A program made the position numbers and the translations under genes. This document shows positions 1 through 59,180 of a DNA stretch of 64,000 nucleotides, piece by piece (within the stretch, counting starts at the first letter, position 1; the number at the start of each line of letters is the position of its first letter). Location: the NCBI GenBank assembly GCA_963755675.1, contig CAVWLK010000087.1, forward strand, positions 14,238-78,237. The letters are read 5' to 3'. The notes beneath the pieces are model-generated. The model was not told the origin of the DNA and ran no database searches. It worked only from the letters and a program-made list of their open reading frames with translations. This DNA is from an uncultured Actinomycetes bacterium (lineage in GTDB: Bacteria > Actinomycetota > Thermoleophilia > Gaiellales > JAICJC01).

Positions 1-161
1 CGGCCTGTGCGACGATGGGGTCTGAAGAGAGGCTGGGCGAGGATCGCAGGCCGCTGTTGCAGGTGGCTCACCGGCCACCTCTGGTGTGCACTGAACGTAT
101 GACCCCTCCGTCGCCATCCGGGCGGCGGAAAATGGTCGTGCTGTCAGACGACTGCCTGAAC

Positions 162-277
162 GGGACCAAAGATTCGCCGCCCCGGCTTGCCTTCCGTCCC
201 CCAACCGAACCGTGTTTCGAGTCGCCTCTACGATCCGTCCGACTGGCTTCAACCTACTCGGCTGCCCTGAGCGGCGC
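162..277 (-). ncRNA. Mirror copy of structured RNA element C
   Basis: Reverse complement of 10887-11002; its promoter is mirrored at ~285-313. Confidence 0.5.
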
Positions 278-387
278 AGAAGGAAAGGTACGCGACCCGG
301 AACTGGAAAGCAAGCGAAAATATGCATATTCTCAACAGGCTACCGGCAACTGGGGCGAGTGCACGGGCTGACGCCTAGACTCACGCC

Positions 388-2058
388 ATGACCGACCTCT
401 CCCGACGGCTGGCCGTGGCGCGCGGCGACGAACCGGCCGTGTTGGTCCTGCGCGGCGGACGCGTGCTGTCGGTCCACACCCGCGAGTGGTTGGACGCCGA
501 CGTGGCCGATCTGGCGATGGCTGGGATTGCCGCAGTCGCCTCCTACGCCGGCCACCAGGCTCATCGAAGCCGGAGGTCGCCACGTCGCGGCCCGGGTCGG
601 ATCGACGCCCATATGCACCTGGAGTCGTCGCTGCTGCTGCCGGCCGAGTTCGCCGAAGCTGGTGTTTCCGTTCGGCACCACCACGGTGGTCGCCGACCCC
701 CAAGAGATCGCCAACGTGCTCGGCACCGAGGCGTGCACTGGCTGATCGACGCCTGCGAGAACTGCCGCTGGACGGTCTTCAGGGCCCCGCCAGCGTGCCC
801 GCCTCCAGGCTTCGAGTCGCCGCGCCGGCCCCTGACCAAGGGGACCTCGAGGGCCTCCTGCGGCGTCGGCGGGTGCTCGGCCTGGCCAAGATTGAACTTC
901 CCGGGCCTGATCGCGGGCGCTCCGTCCGAGCTGGCCAAGCTGGCCCTCCGGGGTGCGGCGCACGTCGACGGCCATGCCCCGGGCGTGCTCCGCCCGCTCT
1001 TGCAGGCCTACGCGGCCGCCGGCATCGGCTCCGACCATGAGTCGACCACAATCGAGGAGGCTCGGCAGCGTTTGCGGGCGGGTATGAGGTTGCTGATCCG
1101 TGAGGCGTCCGGCGCTCGCAACCTGGAGACCCTGCTGCCGCTGATCGGCGAGCTGGGCCCGGCCAGGATCGCGTTCTGCACCGACGACCGCGAGCCGTCC
1201 CAGATCGTCGGGGACGGCCACATCAACTCGATGGTGCGGCGCGCGGTCGAGCCGGGCGTCGACGCTGGACGCGCTCACGATCGCCTCCCGGAACGCCGCC
1301 AAGTGGCACGGCCTGTCCGATCGCGGCGGTCGCGGCCGGCCACCGCGCCGACCTGCTCCTGCTTCCCGACCTGGAGCGATTTCTGCCCGACCTGGTGCTG
1401 AAGGACGGCCGGCCGCAGGTCGCCGCGGCAGCGTGCCGAATGGGCGAGCCGCACCGTGCGCGTGCAGCCGATCTCCCCCAACGAGCTGCACACGCCCTCG
1501 GACGGCCCCCCGATCCGCGTGATCGGGATCGTCCCAGAGCCAGATCGTGACCGAAAAGCTGGTGGAGCGGCCGAGGCTGCGCGAGGCCTGGCGGTCGCGG
1601 ACGCGGATCGCGACCTGGCCAAGATCGCGGTGGTCGAACGGCATCTGGGCAAGCGGCCGGACCGGGCTCGGCTTCGTACGCGGGCTCGGCTTGCAGCCGC
1701 GGCGCAATAGCCTCACCGTCGCTCACGATGCCCACAACATCGTCTGCGTCGGCGTCGACGACGGAGACATGGCGGTGGGGCGCCTGGCCGAACTGGGCGG
1801 CGGCATGGTGGTGGTGCCGGCCGCGGCGTTCGCGCCGAGCTGCCACTGGCGATGGCCGGGCTCTTGTCGATTGCCGTCGGCGGCGTGCTCGAGGAGAGCC
1901 GGGTTGCTCGCGGCGGCGGCTGCGGACCTCGGCTGCGAGATCGTTGCGCCGTTCCACGCGATGGCTTCCTGGCGCTGTGGGTGATCCCTGCGTCAAGATC
2001 ACCGACCGCGGGACTGGTGGACGTGGAGCGGTTCGAGCTGGTACCGCTGGCCGGCGAA
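388..2058 (+). pseudogene. ade: Adenine deaminase, frameshifted mirror copy
   Basis: MTDLSRRLAVARGDEPA, IDAHMHLESS, DGHAPG, AFCTDD and AHDAHN occur across several frames; mirrors 9074-10765. Confidence 0.85.
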
Positions 2059-2067
2059 CCGCAACGT

Positions 2068-2180
2068 GAAAGAGATTCGCCGCCCCGGCTGGCCTTTGGT
2101 CACCCAGCCGAACGAACGTTCGAGTCGCCTCTACGATCCGTCTGCGGGGTTCACCCTACTCGGGTGCCCTGAGCGGCTCA
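2068..2180 (-). ncRNA. Degraded mirror copy of RNA element B
   Basis: Reverse-complement similarity to 8952-9066. Confidence 0.4.
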
Positions 2181-2355
2181 GAAGGAAACCTCGCAGGCCG
2201 GCGGGACTTGGAAAGCAAGGGATAATTCCCGCTGTTTCGCGGCTCAGAACAGCAACGAGGTAGCACCGGCGGAACGGGTGTGACCTTGGTCGCGGCTCGC
2301 GGAGGGGCCAGACTCGGTCGCTGCCACATGCGCCGTCGAGCTCGCGCGCTCTCAC

Positions 2356-2472
2356 GGGACCAAAGATTCGCCGCTCCGGCTGGCCTTTGGTCCCCCAGCC
2401 AACGAACTTTCGAGTTGCCTCACGTATCTGTTTCCGTCTGGCTTCAACCTACTCGGAGCTGCTGAGCGGCGC
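2356..2472 (-). ncRNA. Mirror copy of RNA element A
   Basis: Reverse-complement similarity to 8651-8766. Confidence 0.45.
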
Positions 2473-2549
2473 AGAAGGAAAGGTACGCGACCCGGAACTT
2501 GCAAAAGAAGTGGATAATTGCGGCTATTCAGCCCTGGCAACAGGCGCCG

Positions 2550-3150
2550 TCACGGCTGGTAGTAGGGATTGGTGCCAGCCGCGTGGTCGGTGACGTCGAC
2601 CACCGTGATCTCAGGCACCGCAGCCCGGATCGCGGACTCCACACCCTGCTTGAGCGTCGCGGCGGCCATGCCGCAGCCTGACGCACCGCCGCCGAGGCGC
2701 AAGGTGGCGCGGCTGTCCTCGACCGCCACCAGCTCGGCGCTGCCGCCGTGGGCAGCGATCGCCGGGTTGACCTGCAGCTCGAGCACTTGGCGCACGCGGT
2801 CGGCGACGGGCCCTGCAGCTCCGGCAGCGGCCCCATCCAAGCGCAGGGCTGGCCGGCATCGGCGCCTTGGGGTTGTCGATCACCAGGCCGCCGCCCAGCG
2901 CACCGTCCACGTCGATGGTGGCTGATCGAGCGCGGGAGCGTCCAGCCGCGGCACCACGATCGTCAGCCGGGCAGTTCGACCACGAGGTCGGTCTCGTCGA
3001 TCTCGTCGCGACGGAGGAACGACATGTCGTACTGATACGCGTTGCCGGCGACGCCGACGATCTCAACCCACAGGCGAGCTCGTCCGGCTCGTGCTCCTGG
3101 GCGCGGGCCTCGATCACCCGCTCGATCGCGGTGCGTACGGCGATCGCCAT
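2550..3150 (-). pseudogene. NfuA/NifU-family protein, frameshifted mirror copy
   Basis: VNPAIAAHGG...DVTDHAAGTNPYYQP; mirrors 7953-8564. Confidence 0.85.
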
Positions 3151-3173
3151 GCCCGAAGGATAGCCGCCGGGCT

Positions 3174-5514
3174 TCATGCTGCTTCGCGGCGAACGCATAG
3201 AGCCCCTCGATCTCTGCGCCGGACCGGCCGGCTGAACAGGAAGCCCTGGCCGAGCGGGCACCCGTGTCGATCAGGAAGCGGCGCTGCTCCTCGGTCTCGA
3301 TGCCCTCGGCGAGCGGCTGCAGGCCGAGGCCCTGGGCCAGCTGGATGATCGTCGCGACGAGACCGCCGGGCCGCGGTCGCCGGGCAGGTCGGCGATGAAG
3401 GAGCGGTCGATCTTGAGCGTCGTCACCAGCATCTGGTTCAGCCGGGCGAGCGACGAGTGGCCGGTGCCGAAGTCGTCGATCGCGAGTCGCAGGCCGCGTT
3501 CGTGCAGCTCGGCCAGCATCGGCTCCGAGCGCGTGCGGGTCGGACATCACCGCCGACTCGGTGATCTCCACCATCATGCGGTCGGCGCTCAGGCCGAAGC
3601 GCTCGATCGTCGCCAGCACCTGGCGCATCGCGGTCGGCTGCCAGAACGACGGCCGGCAGGTTGACCGAGACGTAGAGGTCGAGCCCGGCCGCGCGCCACT
3701 CGGCGCTCTGGCGGCAGGCCTCCTCGATCACCCAGTCCGAGATCGGCCCGATCAGGCCGGTGCGCTCCGCCAGCGGGATGAAGTCGCCCGGCATGACGAG
3801 CCCGCGCTCCTGGTCCGCCAGCGGATCAGCGCCTCGGCGCCGACGACCGCGCCCGACTCGCAGCGCCACCAGCGGCTGATAGTGCAGCATCAACTCGTCC
3901 CGCTCGACCGCCCGCCGCAGCCGTCCGGCCATCGACAGCTGTGCGCGTGGTCGTGGCCGCTGGCGGAGAACAGCTGGTAGCCGTCGCGGCCCGACTCCTT
4001 CGCCTTGTACATCGCGATGTCGGCGTGCTTCAGCAGGCTCTCCGCGTCCGACGCGTCTCCCGGATACAGGCTGATGCCGACGCTGGCGCTGGTGTAGATC
4101 TCGGTGTCCGGCAGCACCAACGGTCGCTGGAGCGCCTCGCGCACCTGCTCCGCGACTCGACGGGCGGCGTCGCCGACGTCGATCTCGCGCGCCGGCCTCA
4201 TCGGTCTCGACGTCGGCGATCAGGATCAGGAACTCGTCGCCGCCCTGACGCGCGACGACGTCGTGGCGCGAGTGGCGCCACGAAGCCGGGTCGCCACCTC
4301 GCACAGCAGCTGGTCGCCGGCGCTGTGGCCGAAGCTGTCGTTGACAAGCTTGAAATCGTCGAGGTCGACATAGAGCACGCTGACGCCGCGTCCCGTCGCG
4401 CTCGGCTCGGGCGAGCGCCACCTCGAGGTGCTCCTGGAACAGGATCCGGTTGGGCAGCGAGGTCAGCGGATCGTGGTAGGCCAGCCGCTCCAGCTCCAGC
4501 TCGGCCCGGCGGCGGTCGGTGATGTCCTCGCCGACGGAGGCGGTGCCGGTCACCTGGCCATCGGCGTCGCGCAGCAGCGTGTTGTTCCACGAGAACAGCC
4601 GCCGCTCACCGGCACGGGTGATGATCGAGCTCTCGTAGTGGGCCATGATCGACCCGGCGGCGACCAGGCGCTCCGCTCGCTGCTCGAGCTCCAGCTCGTC
4701 GGGTGGTGTAAAGGTCTCGTTCCAGAGACGGCCGATCAGCTCGTCTTCCCACCAGCCCGACAGCTCGGCCAGGTACTCGTTGCAGAAGGTGATCCGGCCC
4801 GCGGTGTCACAGGTAACAGCCGCCAGGCGGACGTTCTCGAGCATCTCGCGGAAGCGCGCCTCCGATGCCAGCAGCCCGGCCTCGGCCTCCTTCTGCTCCT
4901 TAACGTCCAAGATCACTCCCTGGATGAACTGCGGCACACCGGCCTCGTCACAGACGGCCACAGCGTCGTCGCGAACCAGCGGCGTGCGTCCATCCAGACG
5001 GATCATGCGGTAGGAGGCGCTGTAGGGGCGGCCGTTGCGACCGTGACACGGTAGTCGGCGATCGTGTGACGGTCGTCCGGTGCATCCGTTCTCCCACCCG
5101 TCGAAGCCGTCGAGCCATTCCTCGGCGGGAGCCCCCACCATCTCCACGATCTGCGGGCTGACGTAGTCGGCTGACGCTACCGGCCAGATCGACGTACGTC
5201 ACGGGGCAGGTTCTCGACCAGCGCTCCCAGCCGGCTCTCCGCCTTGCTGTCGTTCGGCCTGTAACACCGCGTCGTGGACGGCGGCCGCGACCACGTCGCA
5301 GAGCGCGCCGAAGAACTCCATGTCTTCGTCCCAGTCACGGTCACGGACGTCGGCGATCTCCATCAACCCGATCGGCTCGCCGCGCGAACCAGCGGCAGCA
5401 TCAGCATCGATCGGTAGCCGAGATTTTCCAGATCGTGCGTCGGCCAGGGTCGGACTGGATCGCCGGTACGGATGATGACCGGCGCCCCCTCCTCCATCAC
5501 ACGACGCGGATCCG
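3174..5514 (-). pseudogene. GAF-PAS-GGDEF-EAL protein, frameshifted mirror copy
   Basis: [25 protein letters not shown] and LAEGIETEEQ fragments in several frames. Confidence 0.85.
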
Positions 5515-5519
5515 CGCAC

Positions 5520-7929
5520 GCCGACGAGGGGAGTTCCGCTCGCCGGCTACCGGACTCCGCGGCGGGTGATGGAGGAGCGGGCGCCGGTCATCATCCGTAC
5601 CGGAGATTCCCAGGCCGACCCTGCGGAGCGCGCGATACTGGAAAATCTCGGATACCGATCGATGCTGATGCTGCCGCTGGTGTCGCGCGGCGAGCCGATT
5701 GGGTTGATGGAGATCGCCGACGCCCGTGATCGCGAGTGGGACGAAGACTTGAAATTCTTCCGTGCCCTCTGCGACGTGGTCGCTGCCGCCGTCCACAACG
5801 CGGTGTTACAGGCAGAGCAACAGCAAGGCGGAGAGCCGGGCTAATGAAGCGCTGGTCGAGAATCTGCCCGCCGTCACGTACGTGGATCTGGCCGGCAGTG
5901 GCGATCCGATCTACGTCAGCCCTCAAATCGCGGAGATGATGGGGATCCCCGCCGAGGAATGGCTGGACGGATTCGACGGGTGGGAGAAGCGCATGCGCCC
6001 GGACTACTGTCACACGATCGCCGAGTACCGTGTCAACGGTCGAGTACCGGTCGCCCCTACAGCGCCTCCCTACCGGCATGATCGGCCTTGACGGCCGCAC
6101 CCGCTGGTTCCGCGACGATGCCGTGGCCGTCCTGCGATGAGGCCGGTGTGCCGCAGTTTCATCCAGGGCGTGATCTTCGACGTTACGAAGCAGAAGGAGG
6201 CCGAGGCCGGGCTGCTCGCATTCGGAGGGCGCGCTTCCGCGAGATGCTCGAGAACGTTCGCCTGGCGGCTGTTACCTGTGACACCGCGGGCCTGGATCAC
6301 CTTTCTTGCAACGAGTACCTGGCCGAGCTGTCGGGCTGGTGGGAAGACGAGCTGCATCGGCCGTCTCTGGAACGAGACCTTTACACCACCCGACGCGCTG
6401 GAGCTCGAGCAGCGAGCGGAGCGCCTGGTCGCCGCCGGGTCGATCATGGCCCACTACGAGAGCTCGATCATCACCCGTGCCGGTGAGCGGCGGCTGTTCT
6501 CGTGGAACAACACGCTGCTGCGCGACGCCGATGGCCAGGTGACCGGCACCGCCTCCGTCGGCGAGGACATCACCGACCGCCGGCGGGCTGAGCTGGAGCT
6601 CGAGCGGCTGGCCTACCACGACCCGCTGACCGGCCTGCCCAACCGCGATCTGTTCCAGGAGCACCTCGACGTGGCGCTCGCCCGGCCGAGCGCGCGGCAC
6701 GCGGCGTCGCCGTGCTCTACGTCGACCTGGACGATTTCAAGCTGGTCAACGACAGCTTCGGCCACAGCGCCGGCGACCAGCTGCTGTGCGAGGTGGCGCC
6801 GCGGCTGCGGAGCGTCACCCGCGCCAGCGACGTCGTCGCGCGTCAGGGCGGCGACGAGTTCCTGATCCTGCTCGCCGACATCGAGCCGAGCGGCCGCGCG
6901 GAGGTCGACGTCGCCGAGTCGCCGCGGCGGATCGCGGAGCAGCGTGCGCGACGCGCTGCAGCGGCCGATCGATGCTGCCGGACACCGAGATCTACGTCAG
7001 CGCCAGCGTCGGCATCAGCGTCTATCCGCGACGACGCGGCGGACGCCGAGACCCTGCTCAAGCACGCCGACATCGCGATGTACAAGGCCAAGGAGGCGGG
7101 CCGCGACGGCTACCAGCTGTTCTACGCGCCAGCGGCCGCGACTCGCGTCGCGCAGCTCTCGCTCGCCGGCGCGGCTGCGGCGCGGCGATCGAGCGCGACG
7201 AGCTGCGTGCTGCACTACCAGCCGCTGGTCGAGCTGCGAGCGGCGCAGGTCGTCGGCGCCGAGGCGCTGATCCGCTGGCAGGACCGCGAGCGCGGGCTGG
7301 TCATGCCGGGCGACTTCATCCCGCTCGCCGAGCGCACGGGCCTGATCGGGCCGATCCGCGACTGGGTGATCGACGAGGCCTGCCGCCAGAGCGCGACGTG
7401 GCGCGCGGCCGGCCTCGACCTGTACGTCTCGGTCAACCTGCCGGCCGTGCTTCTGGCAGCCGACCGCGATGCGCCAGGTGCTGGCCACGATCGAGTCGCT
7501 TCGGCCTGAACGCCGACCGCATGATGGTGGAGATCACCGAGTCGGCGCGTGATGGCGACGCGCGCCGACTCGAGCCGATGCTGGCCGAGCTGCACGAGCG
7601 CGGGCCTGCGACTCGCGATCGACGACTTCGGCACCGGCGACTCGTCGCTCGGGCGGCTGCAACCAGATGCCGGTGACGACGCTCAAGATCGACCGCTCGT
7701 TCATCGCCGACCTGCCGGGCGACCGCGGCGCCGCGGTGCTCGTCGCGACCATCATCCAGCTGGCCCAAAGCCTCGGCCTGCAGCCGCTGGCCGAGGGCAT
7801 CGAGACCGAGGAGCAGCGCCGCTTCCTGATCGAGCACGGGTGCCCGCTCGGGCAGGGATCCTGTTCAGCCGGCCGGTCCCGGCCGGCCAGATCGAAGCGC
7901 TCTACCACGGCCGCCGCGAAGCGGCATAA
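5520..7929 (+). CDS. GAF-PAS-PAS-GGDEF-EAL diguanylate cyclase/phosphodiesterase; 5' end lost at the fold-back, several frameshifts
   Basis: GAF (LGYRSMLMLPL), PAS (YVSPQI; FSWNNTLLRD), YHDPLTGLPNR, RASD I-site, RQGGDEF, EALIRW, IDDFGTG, LKIDRSF, AEGIETEEQ. Confidence 0.9.
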
Positions 7930-7952: not shown

Positions 7953-8564
7953 ATGCCGATCACCATCACGGCACCTGCGATTGAGCGGGTGATCGAGGCC
8001 CGCGCCCAGGAGCACGAGCCCGACGAGCTCGCTCTGTGGGTTGAGATCGTGGGCGTTGCAGGTAGCGCGTACCAGTACGACATGTCGTTTCTTCGCCACG
8101 ACGAGATCGACGAGACCGACGTCGTCGTCGAACTGCCCGAGCTGATGATCGTGGTGCCGCGGCTGGACGCCCCGGCGCTTGATCAGGCCACCATCGACGT
8201 GGACGGTGCCCTGGGCGGCGGCCTGGTGATCGACAATCCCAAGTCGCCCATGCCGACCAGCCCTGCGCTCTCGATGGGGCCGGTGCCGGAGCTGGCGGGG
8301 CCCGTCGCCGACCGCGTACGCCAAGTGCTCGATCTGCAGGTGAACCCGGCGATCGCTGCCCACGGCGGAAGCGCCGAGCTGGTGGCGGTCGAGGACAGCA
8401 GCGCCATCCTGCGCCTCGGCGGCGGATGCGTCGGCTGCGGCATGGTGGCTGCGACGCTCAAGCAGGGTGTGGAGTCCGCGATCCGGGCTGCGGTGCCTGA
8501 GATCACGCGGGTGGTCGACGTGACCGACCACGCGGCTGGCACCAATCCCTACTACCAGCCCTGA
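7953..8564 (+). CDS. nfuA: Fe-S cluster carrier, NfuA-like (A-type N-domain plus NifU C-domain)
   Basis: Intact 203-aa ORF with VNPAIAAHGG and GGCVGC (CxxC). TATCCT lies 7 nt before the ATG (leaderless). Confidence 0.85.
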   Translation: MPITITAPAIERVIEARAQEHEPDELALWVEIVGVAGSAYQYDMSFLRHDEIDETDVVVELPELMIVVPRLDAPALDQATIDVDGALGGGLVIDNPKSPMPTSPALSMGPVPELAGPVADRVRQVLDLQVNPAIAAHGGSAELVAVEDSSAILRLGGGCVGCGMVAATLKQGVESAIRAAVPEITRVVDVTDHAAGTNPYYQP

Positions 8565-8614
8565 CGGCGCCTGTTGCCAGGGCTGAATAGCCGCAAACAG
8601 CGCCAATTATCCAC

Positions 8615-8643
8615 TTGCTTTCCAGTTCCGGGTCGCGTACCTT
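8615..8643 (+). promoter_or_regulatory. Sigma70-type promoter of RNA element A
   Basis: TTGCTT (8615-8620), 17-nt spacer, TACCTT (8638-8643). Confidence 0.7.
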
Positions 8644-8650
8644 TCCTTCT

Positions 8651-8766
8651 GCGCCGCTCAGGGCAGCCGAGTAGGTTGAAGCCAGACGGACGGATCGTAG
8701 AGGCGACTCGAAAGTTCGTTCGGCTGGGGGACCAAAGGCCAGCCGGAGCGGCGAATCTTTGGTCCC
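8651..8766 (+). ncRNA. Candidate structured small RNA, copy A (~116 nt)
   Basis: Closing stem CGCCGCTC/GAGCGGCG, internal stems, GAG-GCGA-CTC apex, own promoter, three copies. Confidence 0.65.
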
Positions 8767-8807
8767 AGTGTGAGCGCGCGAGCTCGACGGCGCATTCGCG
8801 CTTAACC

Positions 8808-8820
8808 GGGGTCTGACCCC
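8808..8820. repeat. GGGGTCTGACCCC REP-like palindrome
   Basis: The same 13-mer occurs twice more at 52535-52564. Confidence 0.6.
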
Positions 8821-8915
8821 CTCCGCGAGCCGCGACCAAGGTCACACCCGTTCCGCCGGTGCACTCTTCCTCCGTTGCCTGCTTCGGATACGCGCAAACA
8901 GCGGGAATACTCCAC

Positions 8916-8944
8916 TTGCTTTCCAGTTCCGGGTCGCGTACCTT
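8916..8944 (+). promoter_or_regulatory. Sigma70-type promoter of RNA element B
   Basis: TTGCTT-N17-TACCTT, identical to copy A. Confidence 0.7.
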
Positions 8945-8951
8945 TCCTTCT

Positions 8952-9066
8952 GCGCCGCTCAGGGCAGCCGAGTAGGTTGAAGCCAGACGGACGGATCGTA
9001 GAGGCGACTCGAAAGTTCGTTCGGCTGGGGGACCAAAGGCCAGCCGGAGCGGCGAATCTTTGGTCC
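8952..9066 (+). ncRNA. Candidate structured small RNA, copy B
   Basis: 8911-9066 is identical to 8610-8765 (301-bp period). Confidence 0.65.
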
Positions 9067-9073
9067 GGGTCGG

Positions 9074-10765
9074 TTACGCCTGCAGCGGTACCAGCTCGAA
9101 GCGCTCCACGTCGACCAGTCCCCGGTCGGTGATCTTGAGCGCCGGGATCACGGACAGGGCCAGGAATCCCATCGCGTGGAACGGGGCCTCGATCTCGCAG
9201 CCCAGCGTCCGCACCGCGTCCGAGAGCAGCCGGCTCTGCTCGAGCACGACCGCGAGCGGCTGATCGGACACGAGCCCGGCGATCGCCAGTGGCAGCTCCG
9301 CCCGCACGCCGCGGGCGTCGACCACCACCATGCCGCCGCCCAGCTCGGCCAGGCGCCCCACCGCCCGGGCCATGTCACCGTCGTCCATTCCGACGCAGAC
9401 GATGTTGTGCGCGTCATGAGCGACCGTTGAAGCTATTGCCCCACGCTGCAACCCGAAGCCGCGTGCGAAGCCGAGCCCGATCCGGCCGCTTCCCAGATGC
9501 CGCTCGACCACCGCGATCTTGGCCAGGTCGCGATCCGCATCCGCGACAGCCAGGCCGTCGCGCACGGTCGGCGTCTCGACCAGCGACTCGGTCACAATCT
9601 GGCTTTGAATGAGGCCGATCACGCGGATCGGCGATCCGTCGGACGGGGTGTGCAGCTCGTTCGAAGAGATCGGCTGCACGCGCACCGTGCGGCGCGCCCA
9701 CTCGGGCGCGGTGGCCGCGGCGACCTCGGGCACCGGCCGTCCATCCTTCAGCACCAGATCGGGCACAAATCGCTCCAGGTCGGGAAGCAGGAGCAGGTCG
9801 GCGCGGTGTCCGGCGGCGACGGCGCCGCGATCGGACAGGCCATGCCACGTGGCGGCGTTGTGGGAGGCGATCGTGAGCGCGTCACGAGCGTCGACGCCCA
9901 GCTCGACCGCCCGCCGCACCATCGAGTTGATGTGCCCCTCGCGGGCGATCTGCGACGGCTCGCGGTCGTCCGTGCAGAACGCGATCCTGGCCGGGCCCAG
10001 CTCGCCGATCAGCGGCAGCAGGGCGTCCAGGTTGCGGGCGGCCGACGCCTCCCGGATCAGCAACCACACGCCGGCCCGCAACCGCTCGCGGCCCTCCTCG
10101 ATTGTGGTCGCCTCGTGGTCGGAGCGGATCCCCGCCGCAACGTAGGCCTGCAGCCGCGGGCCGAGCACGCCGGGGGCATGGCCGTCCACATGCGCCGCGC
10201 CGCGGAGGGCCAGCTTGGCCAGCTCCGACGGGGCGCCGCCAATCACCCCCGGGAAGTTCATCATCTCGGCCAGCCCCAGCACCCGCCGACGCCGCAGGAG
10301 ACCCTCAAGATCCCCTTCGGTCAGGGGCCGGCGTGGCGACTCGAACCTGGAGGCGGGCACACAGGACGGGGCCATGAAGAAGACGTCCAGCGGCAGTTCG
10401 GCGCAGGCGTCGATCAGCCAGTGAACGCCATCGCTGCCAAGCACGTTCGCGATCTCGTGGGGGTCGGCGACGACCGTGGTGGTGCCGAACGGCAACACCA
10501 GCTTCGCGAACTCGTCCACCAGCAGCAGCGAGGACTCGAGATGCATGTGGGCGTCGATCAACCCGGGCACGACGTGGCGACCTCCGGCTTCGATCGTCTG
10601 GTGGCCGGCGTAGGAGCCGACTCCGGCGATCCAGCCATCGCAGATCGCCACGTCGGCGTCCAACCACTCGCGGGTGTGGACCGACAGCACGCGTCCGCCG
10701 CGCAGGACCAGCTCGGCCGGTTCGTCGCCGCGCGCCACGGCCAGCCGTCGGGAGAGGTCGGTCAT
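9074..10765 (-). CDS. ade: Adenine deaminase
   Basis: Intact 563 aa with DAHMHLESS, DPHEIANV, EMMNFPG, DGHAP, SDHE, FCTDD, AHDAHN. TAGACT lies 6 nt before the ATG. Confidence 0.95.
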   Translation of the reverse strand: MTDLSRRLAVARGDEPAELVLRGGRVLSVHTREWLDADVAICDGWIAGVGSYAGHQTIEAGGRHVVPGLIDAHMHLESSLLLVDEFAKLVLPFGTTTVVADPHEIANVLGSDGVHWLIDACAELPLDVFFMAPSCVPASRFESPRRPLTEGDLEGLLRRRRVLGLAEMMNFPGVIGGAPSELAKLALRGAAHVDGHAPGVLGPRLQAYVAAGIRSDHEATTIEEGRERLRAGVWLLIREASAARNLDALLPLIGELGPARIAFCTDDREPSQIAREGHINSMVRRAVELGVDARDALTIASHNAATWHGLSDRGAVAAGHRADLLLLPDLERFVPDLVLKDGRPVPEVAAATAPEWARRTVRVQPISSNELHTPSDGSPIRVIGLIQSQIVTESLVETPTVRDGLAVADADRDLAKIAVVERHLGSGRIGLGFARGFGLQRGAIASTVAHDAHNIVCVGMDDGDMARAVGRLAELGGGMVVVDARGVRAELPLAIAGLVSDQPLAVVLEQSRLLSDAVRTLGCEIEAPFHAMGFLALSVIPALKITDRGLVDVERFELVPLQA

Positions 10766-10850
10766 GGCGTGAGTCTAGGCGTCAGCCCGTGCACTCGCCC
10801 CAGTTCCGGTTGCCTGTTGAGAATATGCGGAAAATGCGAGAATTATCCGC

Positions 10851-10879
10851 TTGCTTTCCAGTTCCGGGTCGCGTACCTT
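10851..10879 (+). promoter_or_regulatory. Sigma70-type promoter of RNA element C
   Basis: TTGCTT (10851-10856), N17, TACCTT (10874-10879). Confidence 0.7.
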
Positions 10880-10886
10880 TCCTTCT

Positions 10887-11002
10887 GCGCCGCTCAGGGC
10901 AGCCGAGTAGGTTGAAGCCAGTCGGACGGATCGTAGAGGCGACTCGAAAGTTCGTTCGGTTGGGGGACGGAAGGCAAGCCGGGGCGGCGAATCTTTGGTC
11001 CC
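10887..11002 (+). ncRNA. Candidate structured small RNA, copy C (6 substitutions vs A)
   Basis: Same length and same predicted fold as A and B. Confidence 0.65.
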
Positions 11003-59098: not shown

Positions 59099-59180
59099 GG
59101 GGGGGTGTCCGAGTGGTTAAAGGAGACGGGCTGTAAACCCGTTGGCTCTGCCTACACAGGTTCGAATCCTGTCCCCCCCA
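59099..59180 (+). tRNA. tRNA-Tyr (GTA), CCA not encoded
   Basis: G7/C7 acceptor stem, ACGGG-CTGTAAA-CCCGT anticodon arm, long variable arm, GGTTCGAATCC; TAGAAT upstream. Confidence 0.96.

Follow-up and report, generated by a model that had tools for sequence, protein, structure and literature searches.

A predicted rod-shaped, multicopy RNA with a putative kink-turn in bacteria of the order Gaiellales

The small RNA of the signal recognition particle (SRP; 4.5S RNA) is a rod that ends in a 4 × 4 internal loop, three base pairs (bp) and a GNRA loop. RsmX, RsmY and RsmZ, like CsrB and CsrC, are decoy RNAs that are encoded by several paralogous genes, have an activator dyad upstream and titrate a protein. 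The 6S and Ms1 RNAs are decoys for RNA polymerase, and Qrr1–5 and the csRNAs are multicopy sibling small RNAs (sRNAs) that act by base pairing. Here, we compare with these systems a repeated RNA element from a 64,000-nucleotide (nt) stretch, hereafter the window, of contig CAVWLK010000087.1 (assembly GCA_963755675.1), which belongs to an uncultured Actinomycetes bacterium of the order Gaiellales (JAICJC01). An earlier note on this DNA had described three copies of a ~116-nt structured RNA. At the level of sequence, the element displays promoter elements, a rod structure, an order-wide spread, old paralogues and no fixed downstream gene. We give a probability of about one half to the reading in which every repeat forms an entire gene, predicted promoter included, that encodes a rod RNA of ~104 nt with a predicted central kink-turn, which acts in trans through a protein that reads its shape, while the several copies raise its dose.

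Gene copies, promoters and transcript ends

The three RNA copies lie on the forward strand of the window at positions 8651–8754 (copy A), 8952–9055 (copy B) and 10887–10990 (copy C). Copies A and B share an identical stretch of 156 nt (8610–8765) with a period of 301, and copy C differs from A at six positions within the RNA, so the locations, the A/B identity and the six changes noted earlier are borne out. Homologues were compared from the taxonomic family of the source genome (f1), of which 76 distinct copies served to build a covariance model, and from the other families of the order (f2–f5). The sequence TTGCTT-N17-TACCTT, a predicted housekeeping-sigma promoter, precedes each copy, and G8651, G8952 and G10887 are located seven bases past the −10 box. 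In copy A, the promoter occupies 8615–8643 (TTGCTT 8615–8620, a 17-nt spacer and TACCTT 8638–8643); those of copies B and C are at 8916–8944 and 10851–10879. The pattern TTG-N17-YANNNT occurs 5–6 nt before model position 1 in 73 of 74 family copies and 64 of 69 others, compared with 0.3% at random places, and its spacer varies freely. A predicted promoter of its own, as had been proposed for each copy, thus precedes all three and nearly every homologue.

Upstream of the promoter of copy A is the dyad CGCAAACAGCG (8592–8602), which is separated from the −35 box by 12 nt and is, from the comparison of homologues, a predicted activator site. Copy B has the dyad at 8893–8903, and copy C an imperfect one, CGGAAAATGCG, at 10828–10838. 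The dyad CGCW-N3-WGCG has a gap of 10 or 12 nt to the −35 box in 57 of 73 family promoters and of 20–23 nt in 50 of 64 promoters of the other families. This shift of the gap corresponds to one helical turn, from which we infer that the dyad is an activator site. A matrix scan of the source genome returned five in-phase sites, four of which are RNA genes, and one off-phase site. A generic scan for promoters and terminators did not pick up these promoters, nor did it find a terminator. The top-scoring dyad-plus-promoter, at C40:90733 (L352:1501-1551), has no RNA behind it and is located ~220 nt before an open reading frame (ORF) for a winged-helix-like protein; it is conserved in a few genus relatives only, not broadly.

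Twenty-four RNA-library runs share small numbers of sequence words with the stretch, and the contigs of four of them were compared, with two studies providing the evidence on the ends. One contig of run X16 covers 8662–8754 without mismatches at a depth of 453 and is flanked at either end by adapter-like sequence. Contigs of run X12, from another study, end at 8754 and 9055, where adapter-like sequence likewise begins. We take the sequence at the contig ends to be adapter, the first A of which may be the last base of the RNA, so that the RNA would end at 8753 or 8754. These metatranscriptome contigs indicate a probable length of ~104 nt, instead of the 116 nt put forward earlier. The segments 8562–8642 and 8778–8912 are covered by none of the four runs. 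The contigs cover exactly the stretch of the RNA, in agreement with the earlier view that it stands alone, and they hint at a discrete ~104-nt RNA that probably ends at the base of the closing helix. The helix is followed by a U-rich tail at 8755–8766, outside the conserved rod, which is predicted to be a terminator or a processing tail; at least four U within 9 nt occur in 72 of 74 family homologues and 59 of 69 others. The pairing of this tail with the core is not conserved. The tail and its homologues contain GGWCC in 26 of 74 and 28 of 69 copies, or TTAA in 35 of 74.

Fold and predicted three-dimensional motifs

Copy A is predicted to fold, in order, into a closing helix P1, short helices, a loop-E-like loop, a kink-turn, a 14-bp helix, a 4 × 4 loop, three base pairs and a GNRA loop. 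In 76 ungapped rows of the source family, 96.5% of cells are paired, compared with at most 44.9% in slid controls, and 17 of 32 pairs show changes on both sides, a result equalled in none of 500 shuffles, in a test inflated by the relatedness of the rows. When divergent members are included, both-side changes are found in 30 of 32 pairs of an alignment fitted to the model. RNAalifold returned the same rod unaided, and the 104-nt span folds alone as a rod, also in copy A, in 75 of 76 copies. The rod fold drawn by eye in the earlier note is therefore supported by covariation among homologues, with the exception of its GGU/ACC helix, in which only 57.9% of cells are paired and 406 of 500 shuffles score as high. 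The minimum-free-energy structure of the 116-nt sequence taken singly has three hairpins, of which the 3′ hairpin is not conserved (26 of 76 copies with at least 8 of 10 pairs). There is no conserved start codon, and the sole open frame on the plus strand has stops in 15 of 76 copies.

The bases of the rejected GGU/ACC helix fit a standard kink-turn next to a loop-E-like motif. The 5′ strands of the predicted loop E (GAGUA, 8669–8673) and kink-turn (G/GUU/GAAG, 8674–8681) together span 8669–8681, and the 3′ strands of the kink-turn (GGGAC, 8728–8732) and of loop E (CAAA here; GAAA in 60 of 76 homologues) span 8728–8736. The loop E, or sarcin-ricin, consensus is AGUA opposite GAA. The loop-E-like AGUA/GAA is located one G-C pair from the kink-turn, with AGUA in 74 and GAA in 61 of the 76 family copies, and in 47 and 60 of 69 copies elsewhere. 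The apex (8696–8713) is formed by a purine-rich 4 × 4 loop (CGUA/GAAA), a GAG/CUC helix and the GCGA tetraloop at 8703–8706, which conforms to GNRA in 76 of 76 family members; outside the family it is more variable, with UUCG loops or inserted hairpins. The apex pair 52–59 shows 16 both-side changes.

The putative kink-turn has a 3-nt bulge between two helices followed by the tandem pairs G·A (76/76 in the source family), A·G (75/76) and A·G (76/76), or 64, 67 and 55 of 69 copies outside it. It thereby agrees in sequence with the standard definition, which we took, together with the folding rule for the −1b:−1n pair, from PMC8191799. This pair is G:C in 74 of 76 copies of the source family and 62 of 69 others. 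According to the same paper, G:C at −1b:−1n impairs folding of the kink-turn in ions alone, and the kink would therefore need a protein or tertiary contacts to fold. The length is 109 model positions in all 76 family rows and 33 of 69 others. The closing helix and the rod shape are common to all members, even the most divergent.

Conservation is concentrated in the three-dimensional motifs, and there is no open seed. This bears on the possibility that the copies are sibling sRNAs that regulate mRNAs by base pairing in the manner of Qrr1–5 or csRNAs. Several copies under one predicted activator site would suit such siblings, but the RNA is nearly fully paired, its stems vary by compensatory change, and its conserved unpaired bases fit internal-loop motifs; we consider base pairing unlikely. 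The motifs also raise the question of whether the RNA functions without a protein, by binding a metabolite or an ion or by self-assembly through GNRA and kink-turn contacts. Its density of three-dimensional motifs resembles that of riboswitches, the GNRA apex is invariant in the family, no known kink-turn binder is found in the order, and there are adenine-related neighbours (the adenine deaminase gene ade here, apt in f3). A preprint describes cages and filaments formed by short RNAs and by a kink-turn construct (bioRxiv 10.64898/2026.07.01.735769), which speaks for self-assembly. The fold contains no junction or pseudoknot pocket, however, the apex varies outside the family, the neighbours are mostly unrelated, and the G:C at −1b:−1n predicts poor folding with ions only. 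We regard a protein-free function as conceivable, with a limited chance of being correct.

Distribution and genomic context

The RNA family is real and uncatalogued, and it is of a known general kind. A search of the window against Rfam 15 gave nothing at gathering score except a transfer RNA (tRNA), and within 8500–9150 there were only chance matches with E-values of 5.9–6.4, in line with the candidate new family of the earlier note. The tRNA gene, at 59099–59180, matches RF00005 and has a GUA anticodon. Nineteen loci from other families likewise had no match at gathering score or with a meaningful E-value. A literature search, with subscription journals and supplements outside its scope, found no description of this RNA. 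Gaiellales taxa are not named in the main text of two motif surveys (PMC11109978, PMC8632094).

With divergent members included, the element is present in all five families of the order. BLAST found it in 36 of 36 genomes of the same family and 0 of 24 genomes of other families, and the 76-copy covariance model in 45 of 45 genomes of f1, 42 of 45 of f3, 7 of 14 of f4, 4 of 9 of f5 and 0 of 37 of f2. A wider model detected 2–7 copies, often in tandem, in 23 of 23 f3 genomes, and none in 125 sampled genomes from other orders of the class. Divergent rods in f2 and f4 have the same promoter, dyad and closing helix. The locus L344:1500-2110, which was missed by model R2, contains three tandem rods of ~104 nt that share promoter, dyad, ends and U tract with the other copies but have no kink-turn. 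In genus g12, the RNA was found in 0 of 3 genomes searched by pattern and 0 of 27 searched by model. In a sample of the phylum, a match was obtained in 1 of 150 other genomes; it lies on a contig that ends at 2,952 nt and is probably a binning stray. Among the matches listed in a pattern scan, 78 of 80 titled records were from Gaiellales, Gaiellaceae, Thermoleophilia or other Actinomycetota, and the other two resemble the same element with its promoter.

None of the window copies leads a sense gene, as had been noted before: copy B ends 19 nt before the stop of ade at 9074, copy C is located before the terminator of a permease gene, and there is no overlap. The ade gene (9074–10765, minus strand; its homologue L036 matches PF13382) lies between copies B and C, and the RNA does not lead it. 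We also considered a role in cis, as a leader or riboswitch of the gene that follows. One family locus does have a copy upstream of a same-strand OmpR-type regulator, and the next ORF is on the same strand in 105 of 155 loci, according to a crude ORF caller, which counts some frames that overlap the RNA as well. Against this, every member of a tandem array has a promoter of its own, the closing helix is followed by a U tract, the alternative 3′ hairpin lacks conservation, and a riboswitch-like position 5′ of functionally related genes was not found at the loci examined. We therefore consider a leader very unlikely.

The source genome has five real copies, of which the two beyond the window are on contig C33 (47144–47260 and 47738–47848; L031), where they flank a NUDIX gene and are located upstream of an OmpR-type regulator near thrS. 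Three further look-alikes at 160–2500 of the window are located in an inverted fold-back duplicate of contig C87. The halves of the first 39.7 kilobases of this contig (1–39685) align in inverted orientation with 92.5% identity and 390 gap openings, and the duplicate is most likely a long-read assembly artefact. In the window it occupies 1–5605, where ade, nfuA and GGDEF-EAL genes occur twice and frameshifted; because this segment duplicates the region that follows, the three look-alikes were discounted.

Neighbouring genes differ in identity and orientation across loci. They include thrS, a response regulator gene and a NUDIX gene at one locus, cysK, metB, nfuA, ade and a GGDEF gene at another, and uppP, apt, a sigma-70 gene and tRNAs in other families. 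No neighbour conserved across families was found, and four f3 neighbours sought in the source genome were absent or located elsewhere. An uncharacterised cysteine-motif protein of ~200 residues, encoded beside apt (L186:380-988, L196:2058-3032), adjoins the RNA in 28 loci; it was not found in the source genome. For 55 of 63 copies, the nearest copy by sequence is in another genome. The varied neighbours, the lack of excess flank repeats and the nearest copies in other genomes agree with old paralogues that were inherited vertically and now and then duplicated locally. The variable positions and the recent tandem duplication of A and B could also be produced by a mobile DNA repeat resembling miniature inverted-repeat transposable elements (MITEs) or repetitive extragenic palindromes. 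Such an origin is largely refuted and highly improbable: genomes carry 1–7 copies, G-U wobbles and compensatory changes point to RNA, the flanks have no excess of target-site or inverted repeats, and two patterns gave no match in viral contigs. A dispersed MITE, which the earlier note had considered as an objection, thus does not account for the repeats.

Candidate partners and comparison with known systems

The closed fold, the invariant bases of the three-dimensional motifs, the fixed length and the co-regulated copies are better explained by an RNA that is read by its shape than by a base-pairing sRNA, a riboswitch or a mobile repeat. The following mechanism can be proposed. A dimeric activator would bind the phased dyad and switch on all copies together. 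The RNA would fold into a V whose two arms are about equally long, and a protein other than L7Ae/YbxF, Ro60 or CsrA may bind the kink or the closing helix. The bound protein would be titrated or scaffolded by the RNA, the dose of which is likely raised by the several copies. The earlier note had inferred a protein or ligand sponge; no partner or ligand was identified.

Several observations weigh against an RNA with a kink-turn that is read by a protein. The L7Ae/YbxF family was found in 0 of 101 genomes of the order (control 7 of 14), and no partner was found. The kink-turn and loop E are assigned from sequence alone, and the window copies depart from the loop-E consensus, with CAAA in A and B and GGAA in C. 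The divergent paralogues of f2 and f4 keep the promoter, dyad, closing helix and rod, but neither a kink-turn nor a loop E can be recognised in them, which means that the kink is not shared by all members. The strict dyad-plus-promoter pattern is not enriched in 13 genomes (38 matches, compared with 48 for the backwards control); 25 of the 38 matches are at these RNA genes, and three precede one small gene for a four-cysteine protein. In two of the four compared runs, X1 and X10, low-depth contigs with 10–17 mismatches cross the promoter or flanks. From contigs, neither the strand nor the ends nor the level of the RNA can be proved, and the runs contain relatives with differing flanks.

Ro60 (TROVE) is encoded in 7 of 101 genomes, and the Ro60-like gene of the source genome is on another contig (C62:198458-199258; L128, L129); Y RNA was rejected as an identity on this distribution. 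The earlier note had raised the option of a CsrA/RsmA sponge. GGA words are present, the activator-driven multicopy genes resemble those of Rsm RNAs, and one divergent copy has a weak match to RsmY (E 0.044; score 25 bits, cut-off 57). However, csrA occurs in 22 of 81 genomes of the order and is absent from the source genome and from all six genus relatives searched (four of them 92–99% complete, one more at 95%), GGA is in the apical loop of 1 of 76 copies, and the invariant GGA is a strand of the kink-turn. The CsrA option has practically no weight left.

Like 6S or Ms1, the RNA could act as a decoy by imitating a bent duplex, either for RNA polymerase or for a protein that binds DNA; a rod of fixed length with closed ends would be consistent with this. 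The 6S model found nothing in five of five genomes tested, four of them of the source family, and in other families a gene of the sigma-70 family often adjoins the RNA (23 loci). On the other hand, a separate 6S-like RNA of ~160 nt was found in 11 of 15 f3 genomes that carry this RNA, though not in four f1 genomes; these RNAs (L421-L425) are mostly below the Rfam cut-off. The rod has no open central bubble and no Rfam match to 6S (RF00013) or Ms1, and 6S RNA was rejected as its identity. We are doubtful of the decoy.

The four-cysteine protein has ~60 residues with four invariant cysteines (CxxC-x7-C-x7-C) and often ends in AA; its gene is located at C30:43092-43238 (L371:1492-1638, minus strand). 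Its promoter has the dyad at a gap of 21–22 nt in 13 of 21 Gaiellales, 0 of 9 other orders and 0 of 20,000 controls, with a pattern that was relaxed after these promoters had been seen. The protein is more widely spread than the RNA. It has no match in Pfam, NCBIfam, or PDB sequences or folds, and its structural model is weak (predicted template-modelling score, pTM, 0.40). We speculate that the RNA, induced and highly expressed, forms a new kind of ribonucleoprotein in which a protein without relation to L7Ae recognises the kink-turn; the four-cysteine protein may be this reader. The proposal is itself improbable. If true, it would amount to a two-part RNA-protein regulatory switch in a common order of soil bacteria. 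Because the RNA combines a predicted kink-turn without a known binder, defined ends and a shared operator, direct searches for its partner and for the signal that induces it are feasible. The operator further singles out a small protein, as yet uncharacterised, of the same predicted regulon.

The RNA dyad fits the core of the ClgR operator, CGC-N5-GCG, and is likewise located upstream of a −35 box (PMC3613350). The dyad-plus-promoter precedes clpP in 0 of 29 loci, a weak test since most clpP genes closely follow another gene. The gene after cinA, presumably the expected place of clgR, is recA or a gene before recA in five of five genomes; no direct search for clgR was made.

The RNA resembles RsmX/Y/Z and CsrB/C in its paralogous genes, upstream dyad and likely protein titration, and it differs in having neither GGA-tipped hairpins nor co-occurring csrA. 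With the small SRP RNA (RF00169) it shares a rod of similar length and the apex of a 4 × 4 loop, 3 bp and GNRA, but the repeats do not match the model, and canonical SRP RNA is encoded elsewhere in five of five genomes, including the source genome; this identity was rejected. OLE RNA, a non-coding RNA of bacteria with a kink-turn to which a protein binds (OapC/YbxF; PMC9723947), is comparable to what is predicted here; it is ~600 nt long, whereas our RNA is far shorter and YbxF/L7Ae was found in none of 101 genomes of its order. Drum RNA, as the kink-turn passages of PMC5737381 and PMC8191799 present it, is ~110 nt long, has a kink-turn with A:G at 3b:3n, is followed by a terminator, is not a 5′ leader and has no function established in these passages, all as predicted or seen for this RNA. 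It differs by C:G at −1b:−1n and by a linked protein gene nearby, of which no counterpart was found here. Its model (RF02958) gave no match above cut-off in five genomes and none at these loci, with one match of E 0.054 elsewhere, and this identity too was rejected. The raiA motif RNA has a pseudoknotted core and extra stems, in contrast to the simple multicopy rod without an Rfam match; according to PMC12968392, it is, much as our RNA is predicted to be, a trans-acting structured RNA of Actinomycetota of unknown function with a strongly conserved closing helix P1. Few stand-alone bacterial RNAs are so conserved in length, fold and promoter throughout an order, and the roles of those such as 6S, SRP, OLE and raiA RNAs are central or still open.

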